A stretch of DNA of 64,000 nucleotides from a virus: positions 17,696 to 81,695 of the IMG/VR virus record IMGVR_UViG_3300046542_000086; one strand, written 5' to 3'. The stretch's first letter is position 1, and the number at the start of each line of letters is the position of its first letter. The notes beneath the pieces were generated by a model. The model saw nothing but the letters and a program-made list of their open reading frames with translations. It had not been told where the DNA came from and made no database searches. Shown in pieces: positions 7,500 to 64,000 of the stretch. The translations under genes and the position numbers were made by a program.

Positions 7500-8403
7500 T
7501 CAAGGCCTCGATTAGACGTGAAACGTTCAGGAGGAAACTCTTGCCTGCGTTGTTACGATCGGACGCTTGAACGATCTTGGCAACACCCGAGTTACGGTAG
7601 CTGCGATCCAACAGAGACATGTACACCATCGCCAAAAACGTCGGGACGTGTTCCAGTGCCACAGCCATGGTTTCTTTCTGGTTCAGACCAAACCAACCAC
7701 CGCCAACAATAGCGAACAACAGTGGAACGTTGAGGTTCTCACCGCGCTTGTTGTTCAGCACTTCTTTAAGCACTGCAACGAAGTCTTCTGGACCGTCCAT
7801 GTGACGCAATGAAGCGGCGTGATCGAATACCACGTCGGCTGGAATGCGGGTAGCTCGAGCTACTTTCAACGCAATCTTTTGCAGTTCACGCTCGTCGAGT
7901 TCTTCGGCAGGACGGAACATACAAGCGTACCAAACGGCAGCAGTCATGGTGATCAGCATTTGTTCTTGCGGACTGAACATCAAACGCTTGGTGATGTTCT
8001 CACCGAGGTAACGGGCAAACACGGTCATGGGGAGATCACCCAAACCAGCCATGTCTTCTACACCGTAACGGTGGGCATAAACAGTCAGTGCAGCACGCAC
8101 CATGTTGAAGTTGTATTCACCCATGTTGCTGATGCTCAGCTCGTCACCCTTACGACCACGAGTGTAACCCCGTACGTCCAGAATCACCATCTCGCTGCCG
8201 TCACGCGACTTGAAGAACAGTGGGTGAGCAAAGCCGGGTACTTCTTTGTTCTCAGGACTCACGCCCCAGACGCAATTGATGTACTTACCATTCAGCTTCA
8301 GAGGTTGCAGCTCGCCTTCAATCTCAGCGAGGGACAGAGCCTTTTTAATGCCGTCCATTTGGTACCCAGCACAGGGTTTTGTTTCATACGGTGAGATCTT
8401 CAT
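7492..8403 (-). CDS. conserved virion-associated protein (phiKZ gp28-like)
   Basis: 303-aa ORF overlapping the next gene by 8 bp; divergent from the sheath gene. Confidence 0.65.
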   Translation of the reverse strand: MKISPYETKPCAGYQMDGIKKALSLAEIEGELQPLKLNGKYINCVWGVSPENKEVPGFAHPLFFKSRDGSEMVILDVRGYTRGRKGDELSISNMGEYNFNMVRAALTVYAHRYGVEDMAGLGDLPMTVFARYLGENITKRLMFSPQEQMLITMTAAVWYACMFRPAEELDERELQKIALKVARATRIPADVVFDHAASLRHMDGPEDFVAVLKEVLNNKRGENLNVPLLFAIVGGGWFGLNQKETMAVALEHVPTFLAMVYMSLLDRSYRNSGVAKIVQASDRNNAGKSFLLNVSRLIEALNV

Positions 8404-8500
8404 TCGCTCAGGTCCCCAGTGGAATGTAGGTGTAAAAGTTTACTAAACCGACATATATACATTTTAACTTAGAATAGTATGATGTATTCCATCGGTACGG

Positions 8501-8513
8501 TAACTATACCATT
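8501..8513 (-). promoter_or_regulatory. candidate late promoter motif AATGGTATAGTTA for the leftward structural operon
   Basis: Identical 13-mer at 59657-59669 and a 1-mismatch copy at 46864-46876; all three lie upstream of operon starts. Confidence 0.5.
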
Positions 8514-8613
8514 CAAGTCAATTCTCTCTCTAAAGGACCATGGCCTTGAAAGATGAGAGATTTGAGTGGGTTCCCAAAGCGGTAACTTAGATAGATCTAT
8601 CACAGGAGCTGTT

Positions 8614-10671
8614 ATGATCAATATCAGAAACGCTGCTCCTCGCGCAATCCTGAAGGGCTTCAAAGATGAGAGCGGTCGTGCTCCGGTTGTAGAACCGGAA
8701 CAGCTTCCTTCTCACTTGGCGCACTCGTTCATCTTCGCTGAACGTGGTACGCTTTTGCCCCAACTGGTTGTCGGGGACAGCCTGACTACTACTTACGGTG
8801 CCAAGTCATTCGACTACCGTTCGAAGTTTGCCAACCACCAAACCGTGCTGGTTAACACCATCAATGGCGAGGGCAACTCGCAGATGGTTCAACGTCTGGT
8901 TCCAGACGATGCCGCGACTGCAACGCTGGTTCTGTGGCTGGACGTGGTGGAAGATAACGTTCCCCAATTCGAGCGTAACACCGACCTGTCGTTTAAGCTG
9001 TCACAGCTGAACGAACGCATTCCTACCGCGACCGTGGTGCTCGGTCACCGTGTGCGCTGGGCTGTTGAAGTTCTCCCTGAGGGTAAAGCCCTGAGTGAGC
9101 TGGTTCCGAAAGTTGGTAGCCTGACTTCGGTTCTGAACAGCAGCCAATCCCAGATGTACCCAATCCACGCGTTCACCGTTGCCTCCCCAGGCTCGTACGG
9201 TAACCTGGTTGGCGTCCGTCTGTCAGCTCCGACTACCGTTTCGGCTTCACCAATCGACGATGCCACCGTAGATGCGGCGAAAGCCTATATGTACCGGTTC
9301 GCGATGGTTGAACGTCCAGACGAATTCTCCACCCCGAATGTGAAAGAAACAATTCAGGGTGAGCAGTCGGTTGACTTCACCTACAAGGCTGGCGTAATCA
9401 ACCGCAACGACAAGCTGGTATCTGTCGATGACGTGTTGCTGCAATCGTGGAACGCTTCGGCGATCAACGGTATCCCAGCGACCGTGGGCGTGATCAACGA
9501 TCACCACGTTTACCACGATCACATCGCTACTCTGCTGGCTCAGTTCCAAGCTGCTGAAGCCGAGTTCGATCTGATCTCTGACCTGGACGAAGACGTACAC
9601 CTCTTCAACTTCGTCGGCGGTACCTCGATCCAAAACGTACCGTACTACTCGTACGTCGTTGAAGGTCCTGCGTCCGGTGGGGTGCTCCTGTCCGAAACCT
9701 CCAGCCACTACGCCAAAGGTGGTGCTGACGGTACCCTGGACTTCGCTACTTTCGACGCACTCGTTGCTAACGCCACCGCCAACTACGGCGACCTGGCTGG
9801 CTTCGATTTCCTCGATACCGCGATCTACCCTCAGAGCTGCATCTACGATACCGGCTTCACGCTGGACACGAAGAAGAAGCTGCTGACCGTACTCGGTCGT
9901 CGTAAAGACATGTGGGTCGTGCTGTCGACTCAAGACGTGTCTGCCAAACAGAACACTCCGTCTGAAGAATCGAGCATCGCGGTTGCCCTGCGTACTGCTG
10001 CTCGTATGTACCCAGAATCGGAAGTTTACGGTACCCCGGTTTGCCGTGCTATCGTGATCGGCCACTCTGGCTACCTGATCAACTCCCAATGGACCAAACT
10101 GACCCCGCTGACCATCGAGTTCGCGGCCAAGTCGGCTCGTTACATGGGTGCTGGTAACGGTATCTGGAAATCGGCTTCGTCGTTCAGCATCTCCCCAGCT
10201 AACCAAGTCACCATGTTCCGTGACGTAAACGCCAGCTTCAAGAAAGCTGACGTCCGTTCACAAGACTGGGACACTGGTCTGGTGTGGGTACAGAACTACG
10301 ACCGCCGTAGCCTGTTCTTCCCGGCGTTCCAAACTGTGTACGATGACGACACCTCGATCCTGAACAGCTTCTTCAACATGGCTATCGCCGTGGAGCTGGA
10401 AAAGATCGCAGACCGCGCCTGGCGTGATCTGGTCGGTATCGACAGTCTGACCCCAGAGCAGTTCATCGCTCGTTCCAACCGCATCATCAGTCAAGCCGTA
10501 GCTGGTCGTTTCGACGGTCGTGTAACGATTGAGGTAGATACTTTCCTCACCGCAGCCGACACCCAGCGTGGTTACTCGTGGTCGTGTAACATCATCATGT
10601 ACGGTAACAACATGATGACCGTTGGTTCGTTCACCATCGTTGCCCGTCGTCGTGAGGATCTCGCACAATGA
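8614..10671 (+). CDS. tail sheath protein (phiKZ gp29-like)
   Basis: ~685 aa starting MINIRNAAPR after an AGGAG RBS; sheath-like motifs YDTGF and YPESEVYGTP; strong high-expression codon bias. Confidence 0.88.
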   Translation: MINIRNAAPRAILKGFKDESGRAPVVEPEQLPSHLAHSFIFAERGTLLPQLVVGDSLTTTYGAKSFDYRSKFANHQTVLVNTINGEGNSQMVQRLVPDDAATATLVLWLDVVEDNVPQFERNTDLSFKLSQLNERIPTATVVLGHRVRWAVEVLPEGKALSELVPKVGSLTSVLNSSQSQMYPIHAFTVASPGSYGNLVGVRLSAPTTVSASPIDDATVDAAKAYMYRFAMVERPDEFSTPNVKETIQGEQSVDFTYKAGVINRNDKLVSVDDVLLQSWNASAINGIPATVGVINDHHVYHDHIATLLAQFQAAEAEFDLISDLDEDVHLFNFVGGTSIQNVPYYSYVVEGPASGGVLLSETSSHYAKGGADGTLDFATFDALVANATANYGDLAGFDFLDTAIYPQSCIYDTGFTLDTKKKLLTVLGRRKDMWVVLSTQDVSAKQNTPSEESSIAVALRTAARMYPESEVYGTPVCRAIVIGHSGYLINSQWTKLTPLTIEFAAKSARYMGAGNGIWKSASSFSISPANQVTMFRDVNASFKKADVRSQDWDTGLVWVQNYDRRSLFFPAFQTVYDDDTSILNSFFNMAIAVELEKIADRAWRDLVGIDSLTPEQFIARSNRIISQAVAGRFDGRVTIEVDTFLTAADTQRGYSWSCNIIMYGNNMMTVGSFTIVARRREDLAQ

Positions 10672-17067: not shown

Positions 17068-17829
17068 TCACCAACGGGCAGAAGGAGGGAGAACCAAACC
17101 AGCAGGGCCAGTTTTCTTCCAACCGAAGTCAACGAAGATCGTGCCGCTAGACACCCCGTTGTCTTCCATCGACACGCCTTCACCTACACCACCGTCCAGA
17201 CCTTCAACGTGCTCACGGGTGAACTCAGCTTCTTGGAAGGATTCCAACGACGGAGAGTGCCACTTGCGAGCAATGTCAATGCCAGGCTCGTTCACGTAGT
17301 CCCAGGTGACGATTGTGCGGATGTGCTTGACCAGACGTCCGCCTTCGATCTTGTCGTCCGTCAGCGAGCGTACAGAGAAGCACACGCTTTCGTTCGGGTT
17401 CTCCATCGATTCGCCCAGTGACTGACCTTTAGGACCAGACGGCTTGACGTGTCCGATGACAGCAACCACACGATTACCCGACTTGTCTTTGATCGTGTCC
17501 TTCTCGATGCGTACATCTTTGAAGTGGCAGCAGACGTTGTCTTCGTAGATCGTTGACACACGACGCAAGAAGCTGCGCATGTCTTGACCCGGTAGTTGTT
17601 TCGGGTGACCGTACTCGCCACGACAAGCACCGGTCTCGATACGACGCATCAGGTTCGAGGATTGCTCGAACAGTGACTGTGCCGACTTCAGCGGATAGAA
17701 AGCACCACCGCTGTTGTAGGTGTCTAGTCCACCCAGAACGAATTCGTAGTAGCCCGAACTGTCTGGGGTCATCTTGCCTACTTTGTTAGTGCCGAGCAAC
17801 GCGACACAACCATAACTCACACGTTCCAT
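17068..17829 (-). CDS. prohead (head maturation) protease (phiKZ gp175-like)
   Basis: GEYGHP (catalytic His), FSVRS (catalytic Ser), TWDYVNEPG, followed by SLE/SME autocleavage sites. Confidence 0.88.
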   Translation of the reverse strand: MERVSYGCVALLGTNKVGKMTPDSSGYYEFVLGGLDTYNSGGAFYPLKSAQSLFEQSSNLMRRIETGACRGEYGHPKQLPGQDMRSFLRRVSTIYEDNVCCHFKDVRIEKDTIKDKSGNRVVAVIGHVKPSGPKGQSLGESMENPNESVCFSVRSLTDDKIEGGRLVKHIRTIVTWDYVNEPGIDIARKWHSPSLESFQEAEFTREHVEGLDGGVGEGVSMEDNGVSSGTIFVDFGWKKTGPAGLVLPPSARW

Positions 17830-53868: not shown

Positions 53869-54125
53869 TGCCTGGAATCACTTTAGTCGGTGTACACAAA
53901 GCCGGTGGAGAGATCTTAGGTCCAGGAGAACCCACCTTTACTATTAATGGAGCACCTGTCTCACTGCTCAACGACACCGTGGTCCCTCATGATGGACACG
54001 TTAACGTCAAGTTAGTGGAAGGTTCAGCTTGGATGACGTGGAATGGCGTCCCAGTCGTCCACCAAGGACACTTAGCCAGTTGCGGACACACGGCTGAGGG
54101 TTTGGCCAATTGGATCATTGAGTGA
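53868..54125 (+). CDS. PAAR-like spike tip protein
   Basis: TINGAPVSLLND, PH..H, NGVPVVHQGH..SCGH; TGATG-coupled to the spike gene. Confidence 0.85.
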   Translation: MPGITLVGVHKAGGEILGPGEPTFTINGAPVSLLNDTVVPHDGHVNVKLVEGSAWMTWNGVPVVHQGHLASCGHTAEGLANWIIE

Positions 54126-54168
54126 CAGCATAGAGGCTCCCTTCGGGGAGCCTCGTTATGCGCTTACA
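54123..54168. terminator. bidirectional terminator, duplicate of 34966-35011
   Basis: 45/46 identical bases. Confidence 0.85.
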
Positions 54169-55408
54169 TGTCAGAACCGATCTTCAGGAAGTAGGCTTTG
54201 GAGAAACGGAACGGATTGATCGTCGAACGAGTCGGGTCAATCGAGTTACCCTGTCCCCAGTCCGTGGTCTCGAAGTTGTACTCAGGACGATTGTTATTCG
54301 CCCCAGCCAACACATACGTGTCAGCTTCAGTGATGGTCCAGTAGTCGAAGATCCGACCTTTACCAAAGATCACTGGCCACACCGGACGTGTCCGAGTGAA
54401 GTAACGATCAGGAGTTTGTGAAACCCCCAACTGTTCACGGTCTACATAGATGTCGGAGTTGTTGATCACCACCAAGAAACTCTGTGGCAAAGCCAACATC
54501 TTGCGGATCACGATGTCGCTGGTGAACTGATCCAGACCAATCTGATCGTAACCACCGTTCTTGTAGGTCAGGTGTTCTTCGATAGTCGAGAGATCAATCA
54601 GTCCCTTGGCTTCAAAGTACCAATCCACGAACACTTGGTTGCGCAGGTCCAGACTGAAGGTTGAGTCCCCCAGACGTTTGAACGCACGCTCCAGTGGCAA
54701 CAGGTAGCCCATGAAGCTGAGCATCACAGTCTTGTCAGCCAACGGTTCATCTGAGGAGATAATCGTGTTGACGTACAACTGAGGATCGATGCCACCAGGA
54801 CTGATCATGTTGTCAGTGATAGGAATCGCTCGAACCCCACCCACAGCTTTGAAGTTCAGGATACCAACGTGGTTGTCGTTAGAGATCCGTCCAGTCAGCC
54901 CACCATTGTAAACACGGATACCGTCAGAGTCGTAGTCCGAGTAATGGAGCAATCCGTTAACGTCCACCAGACAGTTCTCATGGAAGTCCTGATAGGTGAG
55001 TCCCGCCTTAGTCAGGAGGAGGTCTGCTGCATCAGACAACAGGTAGTCGTTACCATGAGCAATGGTGCGGTGTGTCGGAGCCATCGAGTAACCGGCTTGT
55101 ACAGCGTCACGGTACTCCACGAACTTTGGTTTGATCTCTGGGATCGTAGTTGAGGTAGGGAGAGACTCGTTCCCCAAACCTACCAACCACTGTGTCACTG
55201 TAGTGCCCGGCTTCACCAAAGTGAGGCGACTGCGTACAGTGTTTAGGTCCAGTGAGACCTGTCCAACGACGACTGGGTTAGTGAGGATCAGGTAAATCCG
55301 CGAGTAATCCGTCCAGAGCCTGAAGACATCCATCGCTGAAAGATCTACTTCCGACCAACTACCAGTACGACCACGCGTTCTGGCTAACGATTTTACGAGT
55401 GAGTACAT
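54164..55408 (-). CDS. virion structural (baseplate/tail) protein
   Basis: ~414 aa from MYSLVKS; motif NCLVDVNGLLH; divergent from the fibre genes. Confidence 0.6.
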   Translation of the reverse strand: MYSLVKSLARTRGRTGSWSEVDLSAMDVFRLWTDYSRIYLILTNPVVVGQVSLDLNTVRSRLTLVKPGTTVTQWLVGLGNESLPTSTTIPEIKPKFVEYRDAVQAGYSMAPTHRTIAHGNDYLLSDAADLLLTKAGLTYQDFHENCLVDVNGLLHYSDYDSDGIRVYNGGLTGRISNDNHVGILNFKAVGGVRAIPITDNMISPGGIDPQLYVNTIISSDEPLADKTVMLSFMGYLLPLERAFKRLGDSTFSLDLRNQVFVDWYFEAKGLIDLSTIEEHLTYKNGGYDQIGLDQFTSDIVIRKMLALPQSFLVVINNSDIYVDREQLGVSQTPDRYFTRTRPVWPVIFGKGRIFDYWTITEADTYVLAGANNNRPEYNFETTDWGQGNSIDPTRSTINPFRFSKAYFLKIGSDM

Positions 55409-55511
55409 GGCTAAATTCTCTTGAAGGGCGGAACACGAGCCGGGTAATAGTATGGTGCGTATTCTTTTACAGGCAACTATAACATTCGCTGTTTTCACAG
55501 GAGTCATCGGT

Positions 55512-57995
55512 ATGGCGACAACCTATACTTACCCATTTGACCCTACTGGTGCTGCGACAACTAACGCCGTTGCTAACGAGCGACACGTGTTGTCCCCACC
55601 AGCATGGAAGGACTTTTACTTCATAGTCCCTAAGTTTGCCCCTTACTTCCGGGACTCGTTGCGGGTGATCCATCGCCCGTCAGGTAAGCTCCTCGTCGAA
55701 GGTAAGGATTACCATTGCACTCACTACTTCCACGCAGCTTCTCACGGCGTGGCACGGCGAGTGTACGGTTCAATCACGATGCTCGACAAGACGCTGATCG
55801 GTGTCCTCGAGATCAACTACCAAACCCTCGGCGGTGACTGGGTACTGGATGCGTCGGCTGACTTGACTCGTCTGACCAACACGCTGACCAACCCTCGGAT
55901 TACTACGTGGGAAGAAGTGGTTGATGTTCCATACCAGTTCCCTCCTATTGATCACCAGTGGGACCTCGAAGACCTCAAGGGCGTTGAAGCCATCCTTCCG
56001 ATTCTGGAATCGATGACTGAAGCAATCCGCGACTCGGCTGGTTCTTCGTTTGCATTGCACATCGCTGACAAAGCGAACCCTCACTCGGTAACGAAAGACC
56101 AAGTGGGACTTGACCAAGTTCAGAACTTACCCATTGCGAATATTTCAGAGGCCAACGCTGGTACTCTCAATACTCGTTACATGACGCCTGTTCGCACCAA
56201 GAACTTCGTTGACGCCTACGTCGTACCGTTGCTCGAAACCCACAAAGCGGACTTGAACAACCCTCACGGGACGACCAAGACGCAAGTGGGTCTGGGCTTG
56301 GTTGAGAACTTCAGCATCGCTTCACAAGCAGAAGCTGAGACGGGTAGTGCGACTAACCGTTACATGACTCCGTTGGCGGTTAAGCAAGCCATTAACATGT
56401 TGGCGAACACCGGCCTGTCTACGCACTTGGCAGACATCAACAACCCACACCAAACCACCAAAGCTCAAGTGGGCCTCGGTAGTGTGGAGAACTTGCCGGT
56501 AGCGACGACTGCTGAGGCTGAGGCCGCTGCACGTAACGACCGCTACATGACTCCACTGGCAACCGCTAAGCAGATCCAGGTCTTGGTCAAAGACTCGATG
56601 GACTTGCACTTGAACGCGGTGAACAACCCCCACTTGACCACCAAGGCTCAGGTAGGGTTGGGTAACGTTCAGAACTACCTGACCGCCACTCAAGCAGAAG
56701 CCGAAGCTGGCTTGATCACCACTGCGTACATGACGCCGTTGATGACTCGTAAAGCGATCGAAGCGATTGCTACTGGTTCCATCGGTTCTCACTTGGCTGA
56801 CAGTAACAACCCCCACGCTACGACTAAAGCGCAGGTAGGTCTCAGTAACGTAGAGAACTACACCATCGCTAACACCACAGAAGCTCAGGTGGGGGATTCC
56901 AATACCCGCTATATGACCCCTCTGTTGGTAAAGGCGGCGATTGATGCACAAGTGGGTACTGGGGTGTCTGGTCACGTTAGTGCTGTGAACAACCCGCACC
57001 AAGTGACTGCTGTTCAAGTCGGTACGTACGCTTCGGGTACTCTGGACACCATGTTCGCTGCTAAGCTGGGTACTCTGGCTATGGCTGCTGATTCGGCTGG
57101 TCTGGAAGGACACACCTACGAGGACGTGTTGGTAGCTGCGAAGAGTCAAGGGACTTTGAACTCGGATAAACTGGGTAACCAAACTCTCGCTCAAGTACTG
57201 GCTTCCGCTAAGGCTCAGACCGCTGATAACTCCACGCTACTCGGCGGCAAGACGGCAACTCAGATCGGTGACGAACTGGTAGCGGCTCTGGCTTACACCA
57301 AGCAACTACGTGTGCCTGACTACGCCATCGCTAACGATGCCACTAACAAGTGGATTCCACTGTGTAAAGCGTCCCCAGTGGTCAACATCGACACCGATGA
57401 CCTATGCATCATGTTCAACGGTCTGAACGAGGTCAGTGGTCGGACCATCACCGGCATCATTGACCTGAACACTACCGCTCTGACGTCGTCTGTTACGATC
57501 CTGTCGGGACACGTCACGGACTTGGAGATCTTGTACACGAACGTCGGCGGTGTATTCCGACTGTGGTACAAAACCAATGCCAACGAACTGTCGACCACGA
57601 CCTTGACGCTGATCTCTGGTAAGTCCTTCACTGAGATTGATCCAGCAGCGGTGGTGTCTGCTACAGCTCCGGCTGGTGCAGTGCTGATCCCAATGGTTGC
57701 CGTTGCTCCTAAACGGATCGCCTCAGAGTTCGTCACGCTGGCTGCTGCTGCTAACAAAGAGTACGACCTGCAAACGTTGCTGGGTGCCAGTCACGCAGCT
57801 TACGACAAAGACGGTGCTCTGGTTCAGGTGCGTGTGAAAGACGTACAGGCAGGTTCGCCTACGCTTAACATGTACATCACTCCTCCTGCTGGCGTTGTCA
57901 CCGCTCTGCGGGCTAACCGGTATGTTCGGGTGTTGAACTCTACTGCTGCTTCGGTAGATCTCCAAATCCGTGTAGACGTACCCCGTCTTCCATAA
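55512..57995 (+). CDS. tail fibre protein with NPH/YMTP repeats
   Basis: AGGAG RBS; N-terminal YPFDPTG...FAPYF attachment domain; 5 full and 1 partial ~61-aa repeats; distinct C-terminal domain. Confidence 0.8.
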   Translation: MATTYTYPFDPTGAATTNAVANERHVLSPPAWKDFYFIVPKFAPYFRDSLRVIHRPSGKLLVEGKDYHCTHYFHAASHGVARRVYGSITMLDKTLIGVLEINYQTLGGDWVLDASADLTRLTNTLTNPRITTWEEVVDVPYQFPPIDHQWDLEDLKGVEAILPILESMTEAIRDSAGSSFALHIADKANPHSVTKDQVGLDQVQNLPIANISEANAGTLNTRYMTPVRTKNFVDAYVVPLLETHKADLNNPHGTTKTQVGLGLVENFSIASQAEAETGSATNRYMTPLAVKQAINMLANTGLSTHLADINNPHQTTKAQVGLGSVENLPVATTAEAEAAARNDRYMTPLATAKQIQVLVKDSMDLHLNAVNNPHLTTKAQVGLGNVQNYLTATQAEAEAGLITTAYMTPLMTRKAIEAIATGSIGSHLADSNNPHATTKAQVGLSNVENYTIANTTEAQVGDSNTRYMTPLLVKAAIDAQVGTGVSGHVSAVNNPHQVTAVQVGTYASGTLDTMFAAKLGTLAMAADSAGLEGHTYEDVLVAAKSQGTLNSDKLGNQTLAQVLASAKAQTADNSTLLGGKTATQIGDELVAALAYTKQLRVPDYAIANDATNKWIPLCKASPVVNIDTDDLCIMFNGLNEVSGRTITGIIDLNTTALTSSVTILSGHVTDLEILYTNVGGVFRLWYKTNANELSTTTLTLISGKSFTEIDPAAVVSATAPAGAVLIPMVAVAPKRIASEFVTLAAAANKEYDLQTLLGASHAAYDKDGALVQVRVKDVQAGSPTLNMYITPPAGVVTALRANRYVRVLNSTAASVDLQIRVDVPRLP
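56058..57023 (+). repeat. tandem ~183-bp coding repeats (H-x5-NPH-x2-TKAQVGLG-x-V-x-N...EA-x-AG...YMTP)
   Basis: Read directly from the translation. Confidence 0.9.
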
Positions 57996-58008
57996 GGAAT
58001 AGGTAATC

Positions 58009-59634
58009 ATGGGCACAATCATTCTTAAGTACCCAGAAGACCCTACTGGGGTAAACCCGAACAACCTGGTCATCAACGAACCTCACGACTTGGGTCCTGC
58101 TCGTAACCGAGCATTCGTTCCCAACTACGGCTCTTACTTCACAGAGTCGATGATTGTTACTGAGGCGGTGACCGGTCGGGTGCTCACCAAGGGTGTTCAC
58201 TACATCGCTGCACAACTGCAACAAGACGCCACGCTGGCGATGGACAAAGAGATTTGTGCCGTCGTCGTGGTGATCGATGAAAACGTGCGGGACTCGTTGC
58301 TGTTCACTTACCAAGTTGTTGGTGGTGTGTTCAGTACTTCGGCTGCTGCACTGGCGACGTTGATTGAAGCGTTGGACATTGACGAACGTGAAGTAGAGTG
58401 GGGTGGCTTGATCGGCATCCCTACCGCGTTCCCACCAGCGCCTCACCTCCACGACATCGGCGACGTCTACGGTTTCGAGTATCTGGTTGAAGCCCTCGAT
58501 GCTCTGCGTAACGCTATCTTGATTGGTGATGAATCAGCGCACGATGAACTGCGTCAGTACATCAACTACCAAGACGGTTTGGCGATTGCATCGATTGCTG
58601 ACCTGCGTGCTGACTTTGAAGGACACGAGAACAGCCGTAATAACCCACACGCTGTGAACAAGACACAAGTTGGCTTGGGTAGTGTGCAGGACTACGGCAT
58701 CGCGACCACTCAGGAAGCACAAGCGGGCATCGTCAACAACAAGTACATGACTCCGTTGCGTACTTACGAGGCGATCATCCAGTTGACCACTGGTCCGTTG
58801 AACGCTCACTTGACGAACATGTCGAACCCACACCAAACCACTAAGGCTCAGGTAGGGTTGGGGGTAGTCGAGAACTATCAACCATCGACACAAGCTGAAG
58901 CGGAAGCAGGGACACGACCAGATCGGTACATGACCCCGCTGACGACTAAGCAGGCGATCACGCTGCAAGCGATCACTCCGCTCAACAACCACATCAACAA
59001 CGTGAACAACCCACACGCCACTACTAAAGCCCAAGTTGGTTTGGGTAGCGTATTGGATTACGGGATTGCGTTGCAGAACGAAGCAGAAGCCGGTACCTCG
59101 AACCTGAAGTACATGACTCCTCTGCGAACTGCGAACGCGATTGCGGTGTTGGCTGTAGCTCCGTTGAACACACACATCGCTAACGTCAACAACCCGCATG
59201 CTACTACCAAGGCGCAAGTGGGTCTGGGGAACGTACAAGACTTACCATTGGCTACTTCGGCTGAAGCTATCGCAGGTGCGTCGAATGCCCGCTATATGAC
59301 TCCTGTCACTACGGCGAACGCAATCAACTCACAGATCATTGTAGCTTTCAACGCCCACACCGGTAACCTGTCGAACCCCCACGCTACGACTAAAGCGCAG
59401 GTTGGCTTGAGTGCCATTCCTAACGCTATCACTCGTTCTCGTGCGTTGAACAGCGATGCTTCGTTGTTGACTGCTGGTGGTATGTACGACCACACCATCT
59501 CTCTCGACCACGATGCTCGCTACGCTCCAAAGAACATGGCGGGTGTTGACTGTTCGGTACATTGGAACGGGGCTGGTGTGTTTGTTTGGGGCGGTGGTGC
59601 TTGGCGTCAAGTCTGGCCTGCTCAGTGGTCCTAA
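58009..59634 (+). CDS. second tail fibre protein with NPH/YMTP repeats
   Basis: Paralogous N-terminus (YPEDPTG); 4 full and 1 partial repeats; short Trp-rich C-terminus. Confidence 0.8.
   Translation: MGTIILKYPEDPTGVNPNNLVINEPHDLGPARNRAFVPNYGSYFTESMIVTEAVTGRVLTKGVHYIAAQLQQDATLAMDKEICAVVVVIDENVRDSLLFTYQVVGGVFSTSAAALATLIEALDIDEREVEWGGLIGIPTAFPPAPHLHDIGDVYGFEYLVEALDALRNAILIGDESAHDELRQYINYQDGLAIASIADLRADFEGHENSRNNPHAVNKTQVGLGSVQDYGIATTQEAQAGIVNNKYMTPLRTYEAIIQLTTGPLNAHLTNMSNPHQTTKAQVGLGVVENYQPSTQAEAEAGTRPDRYMTPLTTKQAITLQAITPLNNHINNVNNPHATTKAQVGLGSVLDYGIALQNEAEAGTSNLKYMTPLRTANAIAVLAVAPLNTHIANVNNPHATTKAQVGLGNVQDLPLATSAEAIAGASNARYMTPVTTANAINSQIIVAFNAHTGNLSNPHATTKAQVGLSAIPNAITRSRALNSDASLLTAGGMYDHTISLDHDARYAPKNMAGVDCSVHWNGAGVFVWGGGAWRQVWPAQWS
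58624..59424 (+). repeat. tandem ~183-bp coding repeats, same family as 56058-57023
   Basis: Read directly from the translation. Confidence 0.9.
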
Positions 59635-59656
59635 GTAGAAAAATATACCCGAGGGC

Positions 59657-59669
59657 AATGGTATAGTTA
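59657..59669 (+). promoter_or_regulatory. candidate late promoter motif AATGGTATAGTTA upstream of the cupin/radical SAM operon
   Basis: Same 13-mer as 8501-8513 (minus strand). Confidence 0.5.
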
Positions 59670-59692
59670 ATTACCAGCCCTTGGGGGTCGAG

Positions 59693-60202
59693 ATGTTGAA
59701 ACTAATAAACGACTTCACTTTTGATGGCATCACCGAAGCCAGTCTCAAACTGGACGACGTGTTAGCCAGCCCTTTCTTCTACGAGCAAGGGTTAGTGAAG
59801 TACGTGCTACTCGGCCAGTCTCACGATGCCTACAACCCGTGGGACTATATACAGAACTCTGCGAGCGTCTTTAAGATTGAAGGCTTTGAAAGATTCAGCT
59901 TAAAGATGTTCGACGAGTGCCGTTATTTGGCAGAACATTACAAACACCATGGTGCGATAACTTGCCATGTGTTTAAGTCCCCTAAGGGGGCAAAGAGTTT
60001 CCCTGAACACACTGATCCTGACGACGTGGTCCTGTACATGGTCAGTGGACAGAAAGAGTTCGTACATGACGGTGGCGTCTTGACCCTACATGAGGGAGAG
60101 ATCCTTTTGATCCCCGCTGGCACCAGACACCGTGCCGTCAACACTGAAGCTTCGGTTATGCTGAGCTTTGGGTTGGAGCGCTTCTTAGTTGAGAAACTGT
60201 AA
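59693..60202 (+). CDS. JmjC/cupin-family Fe(II)/2-oxoglutarate oxygenase
   Basis: SFPEHTDPDDV (HxD), SGQKEF, GEILLIPAGTRHRA (distal His), LSFG. Confidence 0.82.
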   Translation: MLKLINDFTFDGITEASLKLDDVLASPFFYEQGLVKYVLLGQSHDAYNPWDYIQNSASVFKIEGFERFSLKMFDECRYLAEHYKHHGAITCHVFKSPKGAKSFPEHTDPDDVVLYMVSGQKEFVHDGGVLTLHEGEILLIPAGTRHRAVNTEASVMLSFGLERFLVEKL

Positions 60203-61236
60203 TGGGTAAGACGATCTACGTTAAGACTACCGGTGCGTGTAACCTTGCTTGCAAACACTGCTTCACCAACGGCAAAGACGGCGATAAAACTCAGTTCGAT
60301 CCCGTGCAAGTAGGGGATTGGATTGAGGACTATATGTCCCGTCATCCAGCAGGCACAGACTACCACCTAGAGTTCCATGGTGGCGAACCGTTTCTTGTGC
60401 CGTTAGAAAAGCTAGAGGTTTTGGCCTCTCGGTTCCACGAGCGTGAAGGCGTAGGGATGTGTGCGAACTCTAACCTGACCTTCAAGATTACCCCAGAGCA
60501 CGTGGCGTTCATCCAGAAGTACTTCTACGGCCACATTGGTACGAGTTGGGATCACTGGATCAGGTGGAGCAACCAGAAACAGTTTGACCTCTGGTGTAGC
60601 AACCTTGCGTTACTCCGTGGGGAAGGGATCTCGATCTACCTCAAGGTGTCGGTGAGTCGTGAACTACTGAAGATGGCTCCGGATTGGTTCTTGGACCAGA
60701 TCGAGTTCTTCGGAGTGAAGGAAGTTTCACTGGAGCGCTTAACGTTGGATGGTAGTGCCAATGAAAACTTGGACATCTTCCCTGACAACGAAGCCCAAGA
60801 CAACTGGTACCTTGCCCTCTACCAACGTTATAAAGAACGTAAAGGTACGGTAAAGATCCGCACCCTCGACATCATCGAGCAGAAGCTCAAGTACGGCATC
60901 GTTAAGGTAGACACCAACTGTCGCAACTGTGAGCAGAACCTCGTCACCATCAACTCTAACGGTGCTCTCGGGGGTTGTCCTAACGTTGCCACTACTCGAC
61001 AGCACTCCCGGTTGGAACAAGGTGCTGAGGCCTTCATTAAGTCTGATGGTCGGGTTGAAGAAATCGCCCAAGAGTTGACGTGGAACGAGAACTGCATTAC
61101 CTGCGACGTGTCTGACTTGTGTGGGGGCGACTGTCACCGTCTACCGTGGCAAGGGAATCGTTGTGGGGGACTGAAGAATACTTTGAGACACTTATCCGGT
61201 CGTTCACAACAGACCAACTTAATTTTGAAGGTGTGA
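60202..61236 (+). CDS. radical SAM enzyme with SPASM-type auxiliary Fe-S domain
   Basis: CNLACKHC, FHGGEP; C-terminal CRNC...GCPN...CITC-x5-C-x3-C...C. Confidence 0.92.
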   Translation: MGKTIYVKTTGACNLACKHCFTNGKDGDKTQFDPVQVGDWIEDYMSRHPAGTDYHLEFHGGEPFLVPLEKLEVLASRFHEREGVGMCANSNLTFKITPEHVAFIQKYFYGHIGTSWDHWIRWSNQKQFDLWCSNLALLRGEGISIYLKVSVSRELLKMAPDWFLDQIEFFGVKEVSLERLTLDGSANENLDIFPDNEAQDNWYLALYQRYKERKGTVKIRTLDIIEQKLKYGIVKVDTNCRNCEQNLVTINSNGALGGCPNVATTRQHSRLEQGAEAFIKSDGRVEEIAQELTWNENCITCDVSDLCGGDCHRLPWQGNRCGGLKNTLRHLSGRSQQTNLILKV

Positions 61237-61237
61237 C

Positions 61238-61789
61238 ATGGCAAACGTAACTAAAGCTAGTGTACTCGAGCGGGCTAACGCTTGGCTCGCGGGTAACGGT
61301 AACGCAGGTATCTCGTGGGGTACGAACAACTACCCTGCCGGTGCTCTCGCTGGTTGGTTCGGTGGTACTACTGGCGGTGTGGCTGCGATGGCTGCCAACT
61401 CGTTCAGTGACGGTAATGCCAATGCTGCCTCGTTGGCTGCTGCCCTGCGAGCCTTCACCAACACCTTTGCCGCAATCCGCTTGACCCGCATTGTGATCTA
61501 CTATGCCAACAACACGGGTGAAGACTACGTCAACGCATTCAACACTGTGCAGTATGACGGTACAGCGATTGCTCACACGGCGTACTCGGTGGGTAACATC
61601 GGTGCTGGGGTCTCTCTCCCGGGCATGGTTGCTAACCAGAACCTGAACTACGCCAACCTCGAGGCGTCCTGTTCGAACCTGTGGTCCAGTTACTACAACA
61701 ACTGCCGTACTAACGCTCTGACATTGGTTAACACCGTATGTCACAGCAGCTGCCACGACAACTGCCACTGTGCACGCGGTCGTCGTTAA
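61238..61789 (+). CDS. Asn/Ala/Gly-rich protein with C-terminal Cys-His repeat; putative substrate or virion adhesin
   Basis: Ends VCHSSCHDNCHCARGRR; structural-gene-like codon bias; lies 1 nt after the rSAM stop. Confidence 0.7.
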   Translation: MANVTKASVLERANAWLAGNGNAGISWGTNNYPAGALAGWFGGTTGGVAAMAANSFSDGNANAASLAAALRAFTNTFAAIRLTRIVIYYANNTGEDYVNAFNTVQYDGTAIAHTAYSVGNIGAGVSLPGMVANQNLNYANLEASCSNLWSSYYNNCRTNALTLVNTVCHSSCHDNCHCARGRR

Positions 61790-61800
61790 AGGAGTTTCCC

Positions 61801-62532
61801 GTGGAAAAGATTCACTGTACTGCCCCGATTGGTTTGGCTGAACTGAAACGTAAGTTCACTGAAGACGTCGAGTTTGTGATCGACTACGACAACTCGCGCT
61901 TCAAAGGTAAGACGCTGATCACTTACCTCAGTAACTTGGACATCCAAGTCCGTCTGGACCTGAAAGACCCAGAAGCGATTCAGGTACTCCTCGCTGACTA
62001 CTTGAACATGTCGGCTATGGTCAAGATCGCTGACCTCGAAGAACTGGCGATGAACGTATTGCTAGCCTTCTGTCAAAAGCCTTACGTGTTGCCGTTTGAT
62101 TCGGCACCGTTCATTCAGGCTAACCGCGACATCCTGGACGTCTGGACTCGTCGACTGCAATCTCTGCCGTTGTACGCAATCCACACGATGGGGGAAAAGT
62201 ATCACGACTACGTTTTCAGTTTCCCTGAAGACCGTGATGACTCGGTAGTGGGTCTGAACTTCGTGAACCTGATCAAGCTCCCGATGTTTGCTGTGCTGAT
62301 CGCTGGTGTAGAAGAAACCGCCTACACTTGGAATAAAACCTTCTTTACCGACTACGTGTTTGGCGGTAACAACCTGTTCAACTACTTCGCCGTGAAAGAG
62401 AACCCGCTGTTCATTGGTGTACTGGCGTTGCAAGACCAGGCCTCCTTTGACTCAGTGGTACCTCAGTTGATCGCAGCTGAAGCTGACGCAGAACGTCAGT
62501 TCAAGGAGCTTACACATGTACCATCTGTTTAA
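61801..62532 (+). CDS. hypothetical protein of the radical SAM operon
   Basis: AAGGAG RBS before GTG 61801 (MEKIHCTAPI). Confidence 0.75.
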   Translation: MEKIHCTAPIGLAELKRKFTEDVEFVIDYDNSRFKGKTLITYLSNLDIQVRLDLKDPEAIQVLLADYLNMSAMVKIADLEELAMNVLLAFCQKPYVLPFDSAPFIQANRDILDVWTRRLQSLPLYAIHTMGEKYHDYVFSFPEDRDDSVVGLNFVNLIKLPMFAVLIAGVEETAYTWNKTFFTDYVFGGNNLFNYFAVKENPLFIGVLALQDQASFDSVVPQLIAAEADAERQFKELTHVPSV

Positions 62533-63571
62533 CTCGGTGTACGTCGACACTGAACGCCGGGTTAACCGGGCGGTCAGCAACATCACTATCTCGAAACACA
62601 TCGGCTTTGAGTATCACCCAGGGCCGAATGAACAAGCGGGTGAGCAGATTGGCTTTGCTCAGTCGTTGGATGACGTAGAACCTCGCGTCCTGTTGGCTTG
62701 GCTGACACTGGCGATGCAGCAGGAAGAAAAAGTATTCATCTACTGCGATGGCGAAACGTATGTACGACTGTATTCCTTGCTCGTGCGTACCGTCTTCCCG
62801 AACCTTGACCTGCTGACCTACAAGTGGATCATGCTCTGCAAGAAGGCTACGTTGCACACCTCACTCACCAACTGGAAACAGGCTGGCTGTGAAGTACTGG
62901 CTGGCGTAGAGCTGAACACTGCAACCATCACTGCGTCGTTCGAGAACCCAGATCCACTGACGTCGATGTTCAAAGAACTGCTGTCTACTGACCGTGACGT
63001 TCTGTCGTTGGAATGGCAACTGGTTCGTCTGATGGCTGAAGGTACGGTAGGTTGCATCCCTGCTCGTCTGAAGAACATCCTGCGTCGTATCGCTTTGGCG
63101 AACACTCACGATGCGCTGGACGTTTGGGGTCGTGTGATTACCGATCCTCAGCACTGGGAATTCGCTGGTGCTGACCTCGACACGCTGTTGGATGCTCCTT
63201 CGGTGTTTGAAGGTTGTATGTTGTTCCAGTACACCAACAACCGGATGTTCCTCAAACCCGGTACGTTGGAGAAGACTCCGAAAGACAACTGGTTGATCGG
63301 TCTGCTGCGTGAACTTGATCCACTGCTCGAACGTGTCGGCGAACCTGCGACGGCCAAACGGACTCGTCTGATTCTTGAGATGTTGGAATCGGAAGACGAT
63401 CTGAATGACCCAGCTGTGCTGCTGGAACGCGTCAAGCAGATGTTCCTCGGACCAGATCGTTTGGCTCTGCCTAACCGGGACTCGAGCAAGTACGACGAGA
63501 ACCTGATCCGCTACCTGTTGGGTCGTTCGGACATTGACCTAGCTTATTACCTAGAAGGGGCTACATGGTGA
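62516..63571 (+). CDS. hypothetical protein of the radical SAM operon
   Basis: AAGGAG RBS; overlaps both neighbours. Confidence 0.75.
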   Translation: MYHLFNSVYVDTERRVNRAVSNITISKHIGFEYHPGPNEQAGEQIGFAQSLDDVEPRVLLAWLTLAMQQEEKVFIYCDGETYVRLYSLLVRTVFPNLDLLTYKWIMLCKKATLHTSLTNWKQAGCEVLAGVELNTATITASFENPDPLTSMFKELLSTDRDVLSLEWQLVRLMAEGTVGCIPARLKNILRRIALANTHDALDVWGRVITDPQHWEFAGADLDTLLDAPSVFEGCMLFQYTNNRMFLKPGTLEKTPKDNWLIGLLRELDPLLERVGEPATAKRTRLILEMLESEDDLNDPAVLLERVKQMFLGPDRLALPNRDSSKYDENLIRYLLGRSDIDLAYYLEGATW

Positions 63572-64000
63572 ATCTGATACCGTTGGTTGACATACTCCAA
63601 GAGAAGAAAGGCGATACCAAAGAAGCACACCTGATTCTCTTTGAGAAGTGTAACCTTCGGTGTTCGTTCTGCCATCAGGATCATGACTCTGAAGTTGGCT
63701 TGGATGCTGGGGACATAATGCGCAAGGGCTTGAAGCTGATTGCTGAGAGTGACCTTGAAGCTCCCATCGTGATCAACATCACTGGTGGGGAGTTGTTCTC
63801 AGATAACATCGAGGACTGGGTGTTCGGCTACTACTTGTCGTTAGGACAGTTGTTGCTGAAGAACTTCAAGCGGGCTAAGTTGGTCTGGGGTACAAACCTG
63901 ATCTACAGTGATCTCTGGCGAGTAATGCGGTTGATCAGCATGTTGCGGGCTGGGGCTACCAAAGACCAGACCGTGTGCTTGGCAACGTCGTACGATCCAG
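63565..64000 (+). CDS. second radical SAM enzyme, N-terminal part (runs off the window; not in the ORF track)
   Basis: Manual translation: MVNLIPLVDILQEKKGDTKEAHLILFEKCNLRCSFCHQDH...INITGGELF...WGTNL...ATSYDP. Confidence 0.88.
   Translation, partial: MVNLIPLVDILQEKKGDTKEAHLILFEKCNLRCSFCHQDHDSEVGLDAGDIMRKGLKLIAESDLEAPIVINITGGELFSDNIEDWVFGYYLSLGQLLLKNFKRAKLVWGTNLIYSDLWRVMRLISMLRAGATKDQTVCLATSYDP

Follow-up and report, generated by a model that had tools for sequence, protein, structure and literature searches.

A conserved C-terminal Cys-His tail in phage tail-fibre modules is a candidate substrate of neighboring radical SAM enzymes

A conserved gene block behind the tail-fibre genes

The virus record IMGVR_UViG_3300046542_000086 of IMG/VR comprises 81,695 bases and is estimated to be 30% complete. 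We analysed its final 64 kb (positions 17,696 to 81,695; 64,000 nucleotides, referred to here as the window), which encode a terminase, a tail sheath, an RNA polymerase beta subunit, UvsX, SbcC and virion structural proteins. The window closes with a tightly packed module (55452-64000), entirely on the plus strand, in which a pair of tail-fibre-like genes is followed by a cupin gene, a radical S-adenosylmethionine (rSAM) gene (rSAM1), the gene of a 183-residue protein (hereafter the target), two genes of conserved partner proteins (hyp264 and hyp351) and a second rSAM gene (rSAM2). The block stops at 64000 because the record itself ends there. The ATG of the target lies 1 nt past the TGA of rSAM1, and its last 16 residues read C-H-S-S-C-H-D-N-C-H-C-A-R-G-R-R. 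The open reading frame (ORF), its linkage to rSAM genes and its spread among viruses and bacteria are established below, and the conservation of the tail is far beyond chance. From these data we infer that the tail is a substrate, that its residues are altered and that the protein has a role with the fibres.

55452..57995, plus strand: tail-fibre-like protein 1; ORF of 847 residues; phrog_2163 virion structural protein 6.4e-143, phrog_13857 tail protein 1e-136
58009..59634, plus strand: tail-fibre-like protein 2; 541 residues; phrog_2163 4.7e-154 and tail protein families
59681..60202, plus strand: cupin / JmjC-type oxygenase; 173 residues; Pfam Cupin_2 3.1e-12, JmjC_2 9.4e-08 (32.1 bits, cut-off 22)
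60202..61236, plus strand: rSAM1, radical SAM/SPASM; 344 residues; CNLACKHC motif; phrog_1802 1.1e-48
61238..61789, plus strand: target protein; 183 residues; conserved N-terminal domain and C-terminal tail
61739..61786, plus strand: core tail of the target, C168-R183; (C-H-x-S/N)x3, then R-G-R-R at the C-terminus
61801..62532, plus strand: hyp264, conserved partner; 243 residues from a GTG; phrog_20767 2.8e-42
62516..63571, plus strand: hyp351, second conserved partner; 351 residues
63565..64000, plus strand, partial at the contig end: rSAM2; CNLRCSFC motif; Pfam Radical_SAM 1.9e-3

The original prediction, made from the window alone, described the target as a candidate rSAM substrate with a Cys-free leader and a Cys-His core. 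Its account of the composition is accurate. Cysteines are found at 145, 156, 168, 172, 176 and 178 and histidines at 113, 169, 173 and 177; residues 1-144 are free of Cys, Asn, Ala and Gly make up 47% of residues 1-140, all six Cys fall within the last 39 residues and three of the four His within the last 15, and the period-4 string is present as it was given. The target has no relative in Pfam, NCBIfam (E<=0.01), PDB or the ESM Atlas, with a best E of 1.3 in a PDB profile search, and its only PHROG match is weak (phrog_35144, 1.1e-4, function unassigned there). A frameshift or chance ORF was ruled out, since homologues have the same length. The target was also said to resemble sheath and fibre genes in codon usage. 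GGT accounts for 0.83 of its Gly codons (n=18); the share is 0.64 for the sheath gene, 0.56-0.60 for the fibre genes, and 0.15, 0.38 and 0.20 for the cupin, rSAM1 and rSAM2 genes on either side. With such small counts, the likeness to structural genes and the difference from the enzyme genes are a weak trend.

Conservation within the protein is highest in the tail

A word-based search returned 53 homologues of the target, and in a 34-row alignment the tail V-C-H-x-S-C-H-x-x-C-H-x-x-R-G-R-R is near-invariant. In a larger alignment of 67 homologues, with rows 24-75% identical to the target and a mean column identity of 26%, the sole invariant columns are C168, H169, C172, H173 and C176, while H177, R180, R182 and R183 are conserved in at least 90%. 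The pattern CHxxCHxxCHxx(G)RxRR-stop ends 79/82 homologous ORFs. A profile search of 1.84 billion representatives gave 808 matches at E<=1e-3, 483 at 1e-10 and 131 at 1e-30, and these 808 representatives at 50% identity are referred to here as the family. We inspected the ends of the best 150 of the 808, which were recruited through their N-terminal domain. The canonical tail end is present in 134, and 8 keep the C-H array with another end (CHGSI/L or a Gly-rich extension). The remaining 8 are degenerate: P0173, P0195 and P0237 have two C-H units, two representatives carry Tyr in place of a tail His, and the rest are interrupted or array-less. When the variability of N-terminal domain and tail was compared, as the original prediction had proposed, the tail proved the most conserved part.

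The target's N-terminal part is nevertheless a conserved domain with near-invariant residues of its own, and spans 125-480 residues across the family. The term "protein-sized leader" therefore suits this part in size but is doubtful as to leader, the more so as no protease gene was recognised in the module.

The composition of the repeated unit was derived from 215 distinct tails. As the tails were chosen by pattern, their C, H and R are given beforehand, and only the free positions are informative. The resulting logo is [VI]-C-H-[SAT]-S-C-H-x-[SN]-C-H-x-[SA]-R-G-R-R, with an alternating T-x-T-x-T-x-T-[VI] stretch preceding the first tail Cys. Position 4 of the successive units is S 0.89, then S 0.69 / N 0.27, then S 0.75 / A 0.20, and the Gly of R-G-R-R reaches 0.89. 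Position 3 is variable, small or polar (in repeat 2, S 0.55, T 0.13, G 0.09, D 0.08). The fourth tail Cys of the target, C178, is a minority state (C 0.13 at that position), 144/250 family proteins lack Cys anywhere before the last 16 residues, and neither C145, C156 nor the WSS triplet of the target is conserved in the family. The conserved unit is thus C-H-x-[S/N], and the extra Cys (145, 156, 178), WSS and Asp of the window protein fall outside it. This divides the chemical arguments of the original prediction. A fit to aromatic-x-x cyclophane patterns survives in the conserved H-x-[S/N], while its details in WSS, HDN and HCA rest on non-conserved residues; the thioether argument from Cys near Asp or Asn loses its footing, as these residues are not conserved (Asp being found in just 0.08 of tails at position 3 of repeat 2).

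One tail on many bodies

The same tail is found on unrelated or very diverged N-terminal domains. In the jumbo phages RSL2 and Atu_ph07, ORF068 (187 residues) and gp170 (297 residues) each follow an rSAM1 homologue and end in VCHSSCHTSCHGSRGRR and FCHSSCHASCHNSRSRR, respectively; both were located via rSAM1, their N-terminal parts being too diverged for tblastn. A second body type occurs in many uncultured viral contigs as tandem pairs of ~127-residue proteins (QLRTFDKT ... RFEY ... RRTVD) with the same tail. These pairs (L135, L159, L168, L177, L187, L199, L201, L206 and others) stand directly behind giant (1500-2100 residues) or collagen-repeat genes and ahead of 4-7 rSAM genes. P0058 (483 residues) carries the tail on a Gly-rich body, and the tail proteins of Bdellovibrionota are of ~200 residues.

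Copy number varies as well. Tandem duplicates of the target gene are found in L092, L100, L102, L112, L129 and many viral loci. The tail itself is expanded to 12 C-H units in L020:10001-10684, and similarly in L113:3907-4266, an ORF cut at the contig end with 15 Cys; short NV(P)V linkers separate the blocks in both expanded tails. In other variants (P0056, P0057 and L254:10001-11239), RGRR is missing and two or three Hint/intein-like domains come directly after four C-H-x-x units. The residue after each "HN" end is K/R and not Cys/Ser/Thr, so these look like self-cleaving domains, not splicing inteins. A single core carried by many bodies, together with tandem copies and expanded arrays, has the look of modified-precursor families, and such features are hard to reconcile with a simple structural metal site or an enzyme accessory.

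The tail is linked to radical SAM genes in viruses and bacteria

To survey the neighborhood of the family, viral loci were collected through the N-terminal domain and their genes compared with the window proteins by phmmer (188 relatives found, 80 loci kept, 77 with a canonical tail ORF). rSAM1 is present in 77/77 of these loci, hyp264 in 76/77, rSAM2 in 74/77, the cupin in 71/77 and hyp351 in 45/77. The gene order of the window is kept in nearly all 77, with hyp264 as the immediate downstream neighbor of the target in most, and most missing genes are explained by truncated loci.

The original prediction had also proposed a search for the tail motif itself. We ran this as a degenerate DNA pattern, independent of the N-terminal domain, on viral contigs and on one genome per prokaryote species; some of the viral contigs overlap the N-domain set. 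The pattern was found in at least 119 viral stretches, and an rSAM-like gene lies within 5 kb of 132/140 viral tail ORFs (117 loci, among the matches listed). In prokaryote genomes it was found in 47 stretches, 7 without an ORF ending in the motif and 40 with 45 such ORFs; for 42 of the 45, an rSAM-like gene lies within the same distance. Those that lack one are two ORFs at contig edges and L116 from Actinokineospora, a match that was rejected as a low-complexity CHCH/RHRH stretch. Overall, most tail ORFs lacking an rSAM gene adjoin the ends of the fetched stretch, with one flank missing. Homologues that routinely stand without rSAM neighbors, which had been named as evidence against the substrate proposal, are not what these three counts show. 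The proposal is thus strengthened as to tail conservation and rSAM linkage; substrate status itself follows from gene linkage and is stated here as a candidate property.

Among cultured phages, tblastn with the target matched a single one, pPa_SNUABM_DT01 (hereafter DT01), a 265-kb Pseudomonas jumbo phage. DT01 has been compared with phiKZ, and virion and non-virion RNA polymerase subunits have been assigned to it (PMC8541153; here and below, published papers are cited from excerpts). Its gene order is that of the window, followed by four further annotated rSAMs (six in total) and two 2-oxoglutarate (2OG)-type oxygenases. Order and continuation are alike in L021, the nearest uncultured relative that was fetched, where the full-length homologue of rSAM2 comprises 337 residues. 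In DT01, an annotated coding sequence of 59 residues, PA10_00061 (L001:12488-12667), is located after the second rSAM gene and before the third; its product could serve as an additional small substrate or partner. No phage matched 59600-64000 by megablast, and tblastn with the distant L050 member likewise gave no match among cultured phages.

The enzymes and their partners

rSAM1 passes the curated thresholds of a radical SAM/SPASM protein (PF04055, 29.7 bits, cut-off 29.5; TIGR04085 SPASM, 27.5, cut-off 27). Its best named families are PapB (NF047865; 3.5e-12, 46.2 bits against a cut-off of 340) and anSME (TIGR03942; 4.5e-11, 42.4 against 349.45), followed by weak matches to DynA (40 bits), YhhB (39.4), AmcB (36.5) and FxsB (34.2), the last three with cut-offs of 445, 425 and 370. 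All named-family scores thus lie far under cut-offs of 340-450, and the other rSAMs of L021 are equally remote or without any family match. Against PDB sequences, rSAM1 and rSAM2 gave generic N-terminal matches only (lysine 2,3-aminomutase, 2.3e-4; viperin, 6.7e-4). What such remote matches suggest is the modification of peptides or proteins in a general sense, with no particular chemistry indicated.

The partner proteins resemble nothing in the searched collections. hyp264 has no Pfam, NCBIfam or PDB relatives (0 matches in a PDB profile search), 25 of its members compared with Pfam at E<=1 revealed no recurring family, and its homologue P0067 scored <0.9 throughout against the ESM Atlas. hyp351 has no Pfam, NCBIfam, PHROG or PDB relatives, with a best PDB profile E of 0.17. 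Family scans of the window, L021 and L074 proteins recognised no protease or exporter gene in the module.

The cupin passes the cut-off of JmjC_2, a family that holds protein Arg and His hydroxylases. Its occurrence varies together with the RGRR end of the tail. The cupin is directly upstream of rSAM1 in 60/62 dereplicated viral RGRR loci with room upstream, and nearby in one more. It is directly upstream in 0/2 RGRR-less loci, L074 and L082, which form one lineage with the tail end CHGSI. Ten other L074 ORFs were tested and include no cupin or 2OG family; two are rSAMs, one of them B12-dependent. The Hint-fused L254 also has no cupin at the position upstream of rSAM1; the ORF found there, L254:8289-8954, shows by eye a ThyX-type RHR...S...S.R motif and is presumably flavin-dependent thymidylate synthase-like. 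Loss of the cupin where RGRR is lost suggests that the cupin acts on the RGRR end. The B12-binding rSAM enzyme of the L074:8923-16000 / L082 lineage comprises 634 residues, and a B12-rSAM gene (7153-8880) also adjoins the cassette in the Bdellovibrionota locus L134.

Fibre genes, virions and predatory bacteria

The cassette lies behind fibre genes in the window, DT01 and RSL2. The module is present in the jumbo phages DT01, RSL2 and Atu_ph07 and in many uncultured phage contigs; the cultured jumbo phages with the family infect Pseudomonas, Ralstonia, Burkholderia, Agrobacterium and Sinorhizobium, and carry it in the host-recognition part of the genome. In distant viral loci, the genes ahead of the cassette match tail-fibre PHROGs and a giant phrog_358 / DUF4815 protein, and in L187 the cassette follows collagen-repeat genes. 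A comparable arrangement has been described in pelagimyophages, where radical SAM cassettes are found in a "host recognition cluster" behind VrlC and tail fibres (PMC7029224).

For Atu_ph07, mass spectrometry identified 131 virion proteins, most of them from coding sequences 31-76, 170-215 and 284-329 (PMC6102473). RefSeq gp170, the homologue with the Cys-His tail, lies at the edge of one of these blocks, and from gp169 downwards hyp264-like and rSAM genes are found. With gp170 inside the block 170-215 and the enzymes outside it, this suggests that the target is present in particles and the enzymes are not; as evidence for a target homologue in Atu_ph07 virions, a position at the block edge is suggestive only.

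Bdellovibrionota provided 27 of the 47 prokaryote-genome stretches, some on contigs of 1.3, 2.4 and 2.8 Mb, and we fetched 20 kb around three of these loci (L132, L133 and L134). L132 and L134 contain, in a shuffled arrangement, the target, hyp264, hyp351, both rSAM1 and rSAM2, the cupin and additional rSAMs, with 2OG-oxygenase and B12-rSAM neighbors. L133 has hyp264, rSAM1 and rSAM2-like genes and a tail ORF that overlaps the hyp264 ORF. L132 (G002:C1:297600-317599) lies between a serine dehydratase and a Mrp-type ATPase, and is therefore chromosomal and not an obvious prophage. Beside its cassette stands a 412-residue protein with an endosialidase-chaperone domain (Peptidase_S74), homologues of which are found near the cassette in L134 and in 6/47 short loci; this domain is a hallmark of fibres and spikes. 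In L133 the cassette adjoins a 2354-residue RCC1/Big_2 surface-type protein.

Comparison with known systems

Among characterised proteins, the nearest analogue is HxsA, from the HXS defence system of bacteria, which has the logic of the window module in common with it, though not family membership. In this antiphage system the rSAMs HxsB and HxsC act with HxsD to mature HxsA (Li et al., Nat Commun 2026, PMC13128918). The effector HxsA is a protein of at least 214 residues, judging by quoted residue numbers, with five HxS repeats and a change of +8 Da on SHRSS (PMC13128918). Both systems thus pair a protein-sized substrate carrying several basic-rich His-x-Ser units (three H-x-[S/N/A] units in the 183 residues of the target) with two radical SAM enzymes and small partners of no known fold. 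Unlike HxsA, the target has a Cys ahead of every His, and its array is strictly C-terminal with an RGRR end. Window-type modules also differ in having up to six or seven rSAMs together with a cupin and 2OG oxygenases, and in being carried by phages and predatory bacteria beside fibre genes. The HXS family models TIGR03976-03979 are unmatched at their cut-offs, and membership was rejected. No NCBIfam match at E<=0.01, including the HxsA model TIGR03979, was found for the target; HxsC (TIGR03977) scored 19.5 bits on the partial rSAM2 and 18.4 on its L021 homologue against a cut-off of 267.9; HxsB (TIGR03978) is not among the 25 best of 38 weak rSAM1 matches; and HxsD (TIGR03976) gave no match in the window or L021 copies of hyp264 or hyp351. 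Unlike in HXS, no peptidoglycan-binding domain was detected in the target, the Pfam scan having given no domain at all.

Triceptides offer a chemical parallel. Their rSAM/SPASM enzymes that form three-residue cyclophanes (3-CyFEs) link an aromatic ring, that of His included, to the C-beta of the third residue, as in HTK and HAA motifs (Phan and Morinaka 2024, PMC11499958), and rSAM enzymes are known that make His-C2-to-C-beta three-residue cyclophanes (PMC11499958). The target resembles triceptide precursors in its repeated aromatic-x-x units (three H-x-S/N) beside a SPASM enzyme and in the occasional Tyr for His within its family. It differs in belonging to a substrate family of 125-480 residues and in the invariant Cys before each His, which has no triceptide counterpart. 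Membership of rSAM1 among the triceptide maturases (YhhB, AmcB, FxsB, GrrM) was rejected at 34-39 bits against cut-offs of 370-445.

Like the substrates of ranthipeptide and sactipeptide enzymes, the tail is Cys-rich with Cys at period 4. Ranthipeptide (PapB) membership was rejected, given 46.2 bits against 340, Asp at 0.08 in its sole position and no Glu acceptor. The anaerobic sulfatase motif is C/S-x-P/A-x-R, and the third unit of the tail likewise has Cys and Arg at i and i+4; anSME membership was also rejected, at 42.4 bits against 349.45 and with a third unit, C-H-x-[S/A]-R, lacking Pro/Ala at +2. Of the traits of precursors of RiPPs (peptides that are made by ribosomes and modified after translation), a conserved core and maturase linkage are present, while the N-terminal part comprises 125-480 residues with conserved positions and no protease was recognised. 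Metal-stabilised fibre tips and spike apexes, such as T4 gp37 with its His-x-His iron sites, P2 gpV and PAAR proteins, hold His-bound Fe or Zn. These resemble the target in having short repeated ligand motifs at the far end of a fibre-module protein with trimeric fibrous neighbors, but are not known to need dedicated radical SAM enzymes and have ligands that are mostly His alone, and Pfam and PDB profile searches found no sequence relation between them and the target. Our literature search, with subscription journals and supplements outside its scope, found no paper describing the tail or giving the cassette a function; excerpts of phage genome papers merely list "radical SAM", "cupin" and "2OG" genes (e.g. 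PMC8541153, PMC7029224).

A candidate modified tail and the alternatives

On balance, these sequence data make it somewhat probable that the target is a protein-sized substrate whose H-x-S/Cys tail is modified by the rSAM and oxygenase kit of the fibre module, and that it stays whole and works with the fibres. The proposal draws on the invariant tail, the rSAM linkage, the presence of one tail on many bodies, and the tandem genes and expanded arrays. It also draws on the H-x-S unit with its His-to-Tyr variants, the weak matches of rSAM1 to peptide maturases and the precedent of HxsA, as well as on the co-variation of cupin and RGRR, the fibre-gene context, the position of Atu_ph07 gp170 and the structural-type codon usage.

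The steps could be as follows. The target, with its start 1 nt from the stop of rSAM1, would be made together with that enzyme as a late, fibre-module protein. Its N-terminal domain, a helix and the T-x-T-x strand before the tail would present the tail to the SPASM-type rSAM, perhaps with help from hyp264 and hyp351. rSAM1 and the further rSAMs would abstract H atoms in the C-H-x-S units, giving cross-links or other changes; the leading candidate is a link from the His ring to C-beta in each H-x-S triplet, as in triceptides, and Cys thioethers are the alternative. The JmjC-type cupin would probably hydroxylate the basic RGRR end. The finished protein would stay whole and act with the tail fibres as a tip, an adaptor or an assembly part, and the same kit would serve fibre-like surface proteins of predatory Bdellovibrionota.

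Several observations weigh against this account. Its support consists throughout of linkage and conservation. The enzymes score below every curated named-family cut-off, so that their chemistry is not readable from them, and family, PDB and Atlas searches revealed no recognisable RiPP-recognition element in hyp264 or hyp351. The absence of a recognised protease counts in the same direction. One member, L023, has Asn at the third His position, which misfits an aromatic cross-link at that unit. For a tail of 16 residues, a set of up to six or seven rSAMs looks excessive, and they may act on the fibres instead, while three Cys and three His at period 4 are equally expected of a metal site, their invariance included. 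The co-variation of cupin and RGRR has at most two related lineages behind it, and RSL2 ORF068 is annotated "hypothetical protein" while its neighbor ORF065 is a "virion structural protein".

A bolder form of the proposal holds that unrelated phages and Bdellovibrionota have one kit, which builds a cross-linked, probably metal- or redox-active Cys-His-Ser C-terminus with a hydroxylated Arg end on a fibre-associated protein that directly recognises or breaches the prey envelope. We put this forward as speculation, with the chances clearly against it.

The most serious competitor, which we nonetheless consider unlikely, is an unmodified metal-binding tip, with the rSAMs and oxygenases acting on fibre or collagen-like proteins. 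In a trimer, every chain would supply a Cys and a His per C-H unit, at all three units, to bind axial Zn or Fe, stiffening a needle with RGRR at its tip. Invariance falls precisely on Cys and His, residues that serve as metal ligands, the alternating T-x-T-x strand runs into the tail, the neighbors are fibrous and presumably trimeric, collagen-repeat proteins among them, and His-bound Fe or Zn is known in phage fibre tips and spike apexes; the many enzymes for a short tail would also find other employment. What such a tip leaves unexplained is the near-constant rSAM company of the tail protein, the conserved Ser/Asn at position 4 and the His-to-Tyr swaps, the tandem precursor-like copies on unrelated N-terminal domains, and the presence of the whole kit in chromosomal Bdellovibrionota copies. 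These precursor-like features could also be taken further, with the target as precursor or scaffold of a released small product, its N-terminal domain as an outsized leader, and a protease of the host or one that escaped recognition as the releasing enzyme. The product would be a cross-linked Cys/His peptide or resemble a cofactor, and would act as a metal binder or an antibacterial. rSAM-SPASM enzymes do build cofactors from C-terminal residues of peptides, as in pyrroloquinoline quinone (PQQ) and mycofactocin, and the core is conserved while the "leader" varies, with tandem precursor genes and array expansion; the Hint-type domains right after the array in P0056 and P0057 indicate that the array can end at a processed C-terminus. 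The near-invariant residues of the N-terminal domain speak against release, as do the module without a recognised protease or exporter, the structural-gene codon usage, and the location in fibre modules with the Atu_ph07 copy at the virion-block edge, and we regard this outcome as distinctly improbable.

Two further roles appear very improbable. As an enzyme accessory, the target would be a small Fe-S, iron-donor or electron-transfer protein for the rSAMs and oxygenases of the module, in keeping with three conserved Cys and three His beside enzymes that need Fe-S clusters and reductant, and with strict co-inheritance. Most members have just three Cys, however, a basic C-terminal RGRR is to our knowledge not a feature of known carriers, and neither the 12-unit arrays, Hint fusions and diverse N-terminal domains of 125-480 residues nor the structural-type codon usage would be accounted for. 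We give equally little credence to a phage or predator counterpart of the HXS effector that acts on DNA entry, excluding rival phages or countering host HxsA, and not on adsorption. In its favor, the two systems have in common the logic of a protein-sized effector whose basic HxS repeats go with maturation by rSAMs, and both have two rSAMs with small partners; the lack of any HXS family model at cut-off, of any detected domain and hence of a peptidoglycan-binding domain in the target, the constant location in fibre and host-recognition modules and not among early or defence genes, and the occurrence in predators beside fibre-like genes argue against it.

Short peptides (RiPPs) are known to undergo radical SAM maturation, as is, since 2026, the bacterial defence protein HxsA; such maturation is undescribed for a protein of a phage structural module. 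If the tail is modified, this would imply new enzyme chemistry on a C-H-x-S unit, an added layer in fibre building or host recognition, and a testable link between the attack tools of phages and predators. Should the bolder form of the proposal hold, this would be the first case of a virion protein modified after translation by radical SAM enzymes, and a piece of attack machinery common to viruses and bacterial predators.

Further features of the gene block

Scans of 54000-64000 for sigma-70 promoters and terminators gave signals at or under shuffle level (promoter-like sites, 2 against 6.3 expected); a weak sigma-70 signal is expected, as the phage has its own RNA polymerase. Three runs presumed to be RNA and one DNA run yielded just short contigs of relatives, which carry no information on transcription. 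The listed hyp264 ORF begins at ATG 61738, with a 52-nt overlap with the target. Its start is probably GTG 61801, since AGGAG at 61790-61794 sits 6 nt ahead and the resulting 243 residues match most homologues. At the other end of the module (55408-55512), the fibre-1 ORF (from 55452) and a divergent 447-residue minus-strand ORF (to 55507) overlap as listed. The true start of fibre 1 is likely an internal ATG near 55512; with this Met, and a PHROG match of the 447-residue protein that begins at residue 33, the two genes are probably separated by a divergent intergenic region of ~100 nt.

Fibre 1 is syntenic with PA10_00069 of DT01, and RSL2 ORF065, annotated "virion structural protein", is the counterpart of fibre 2. 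A unit of ~60 residues centred on NNPHxTTKAQVGLGxVxN is repeated in 5-6 copies in each of the two fibre proteins. Their common repeats and their matches to the same PHROGs suggest that they represent a duplicated fibre gene pair.

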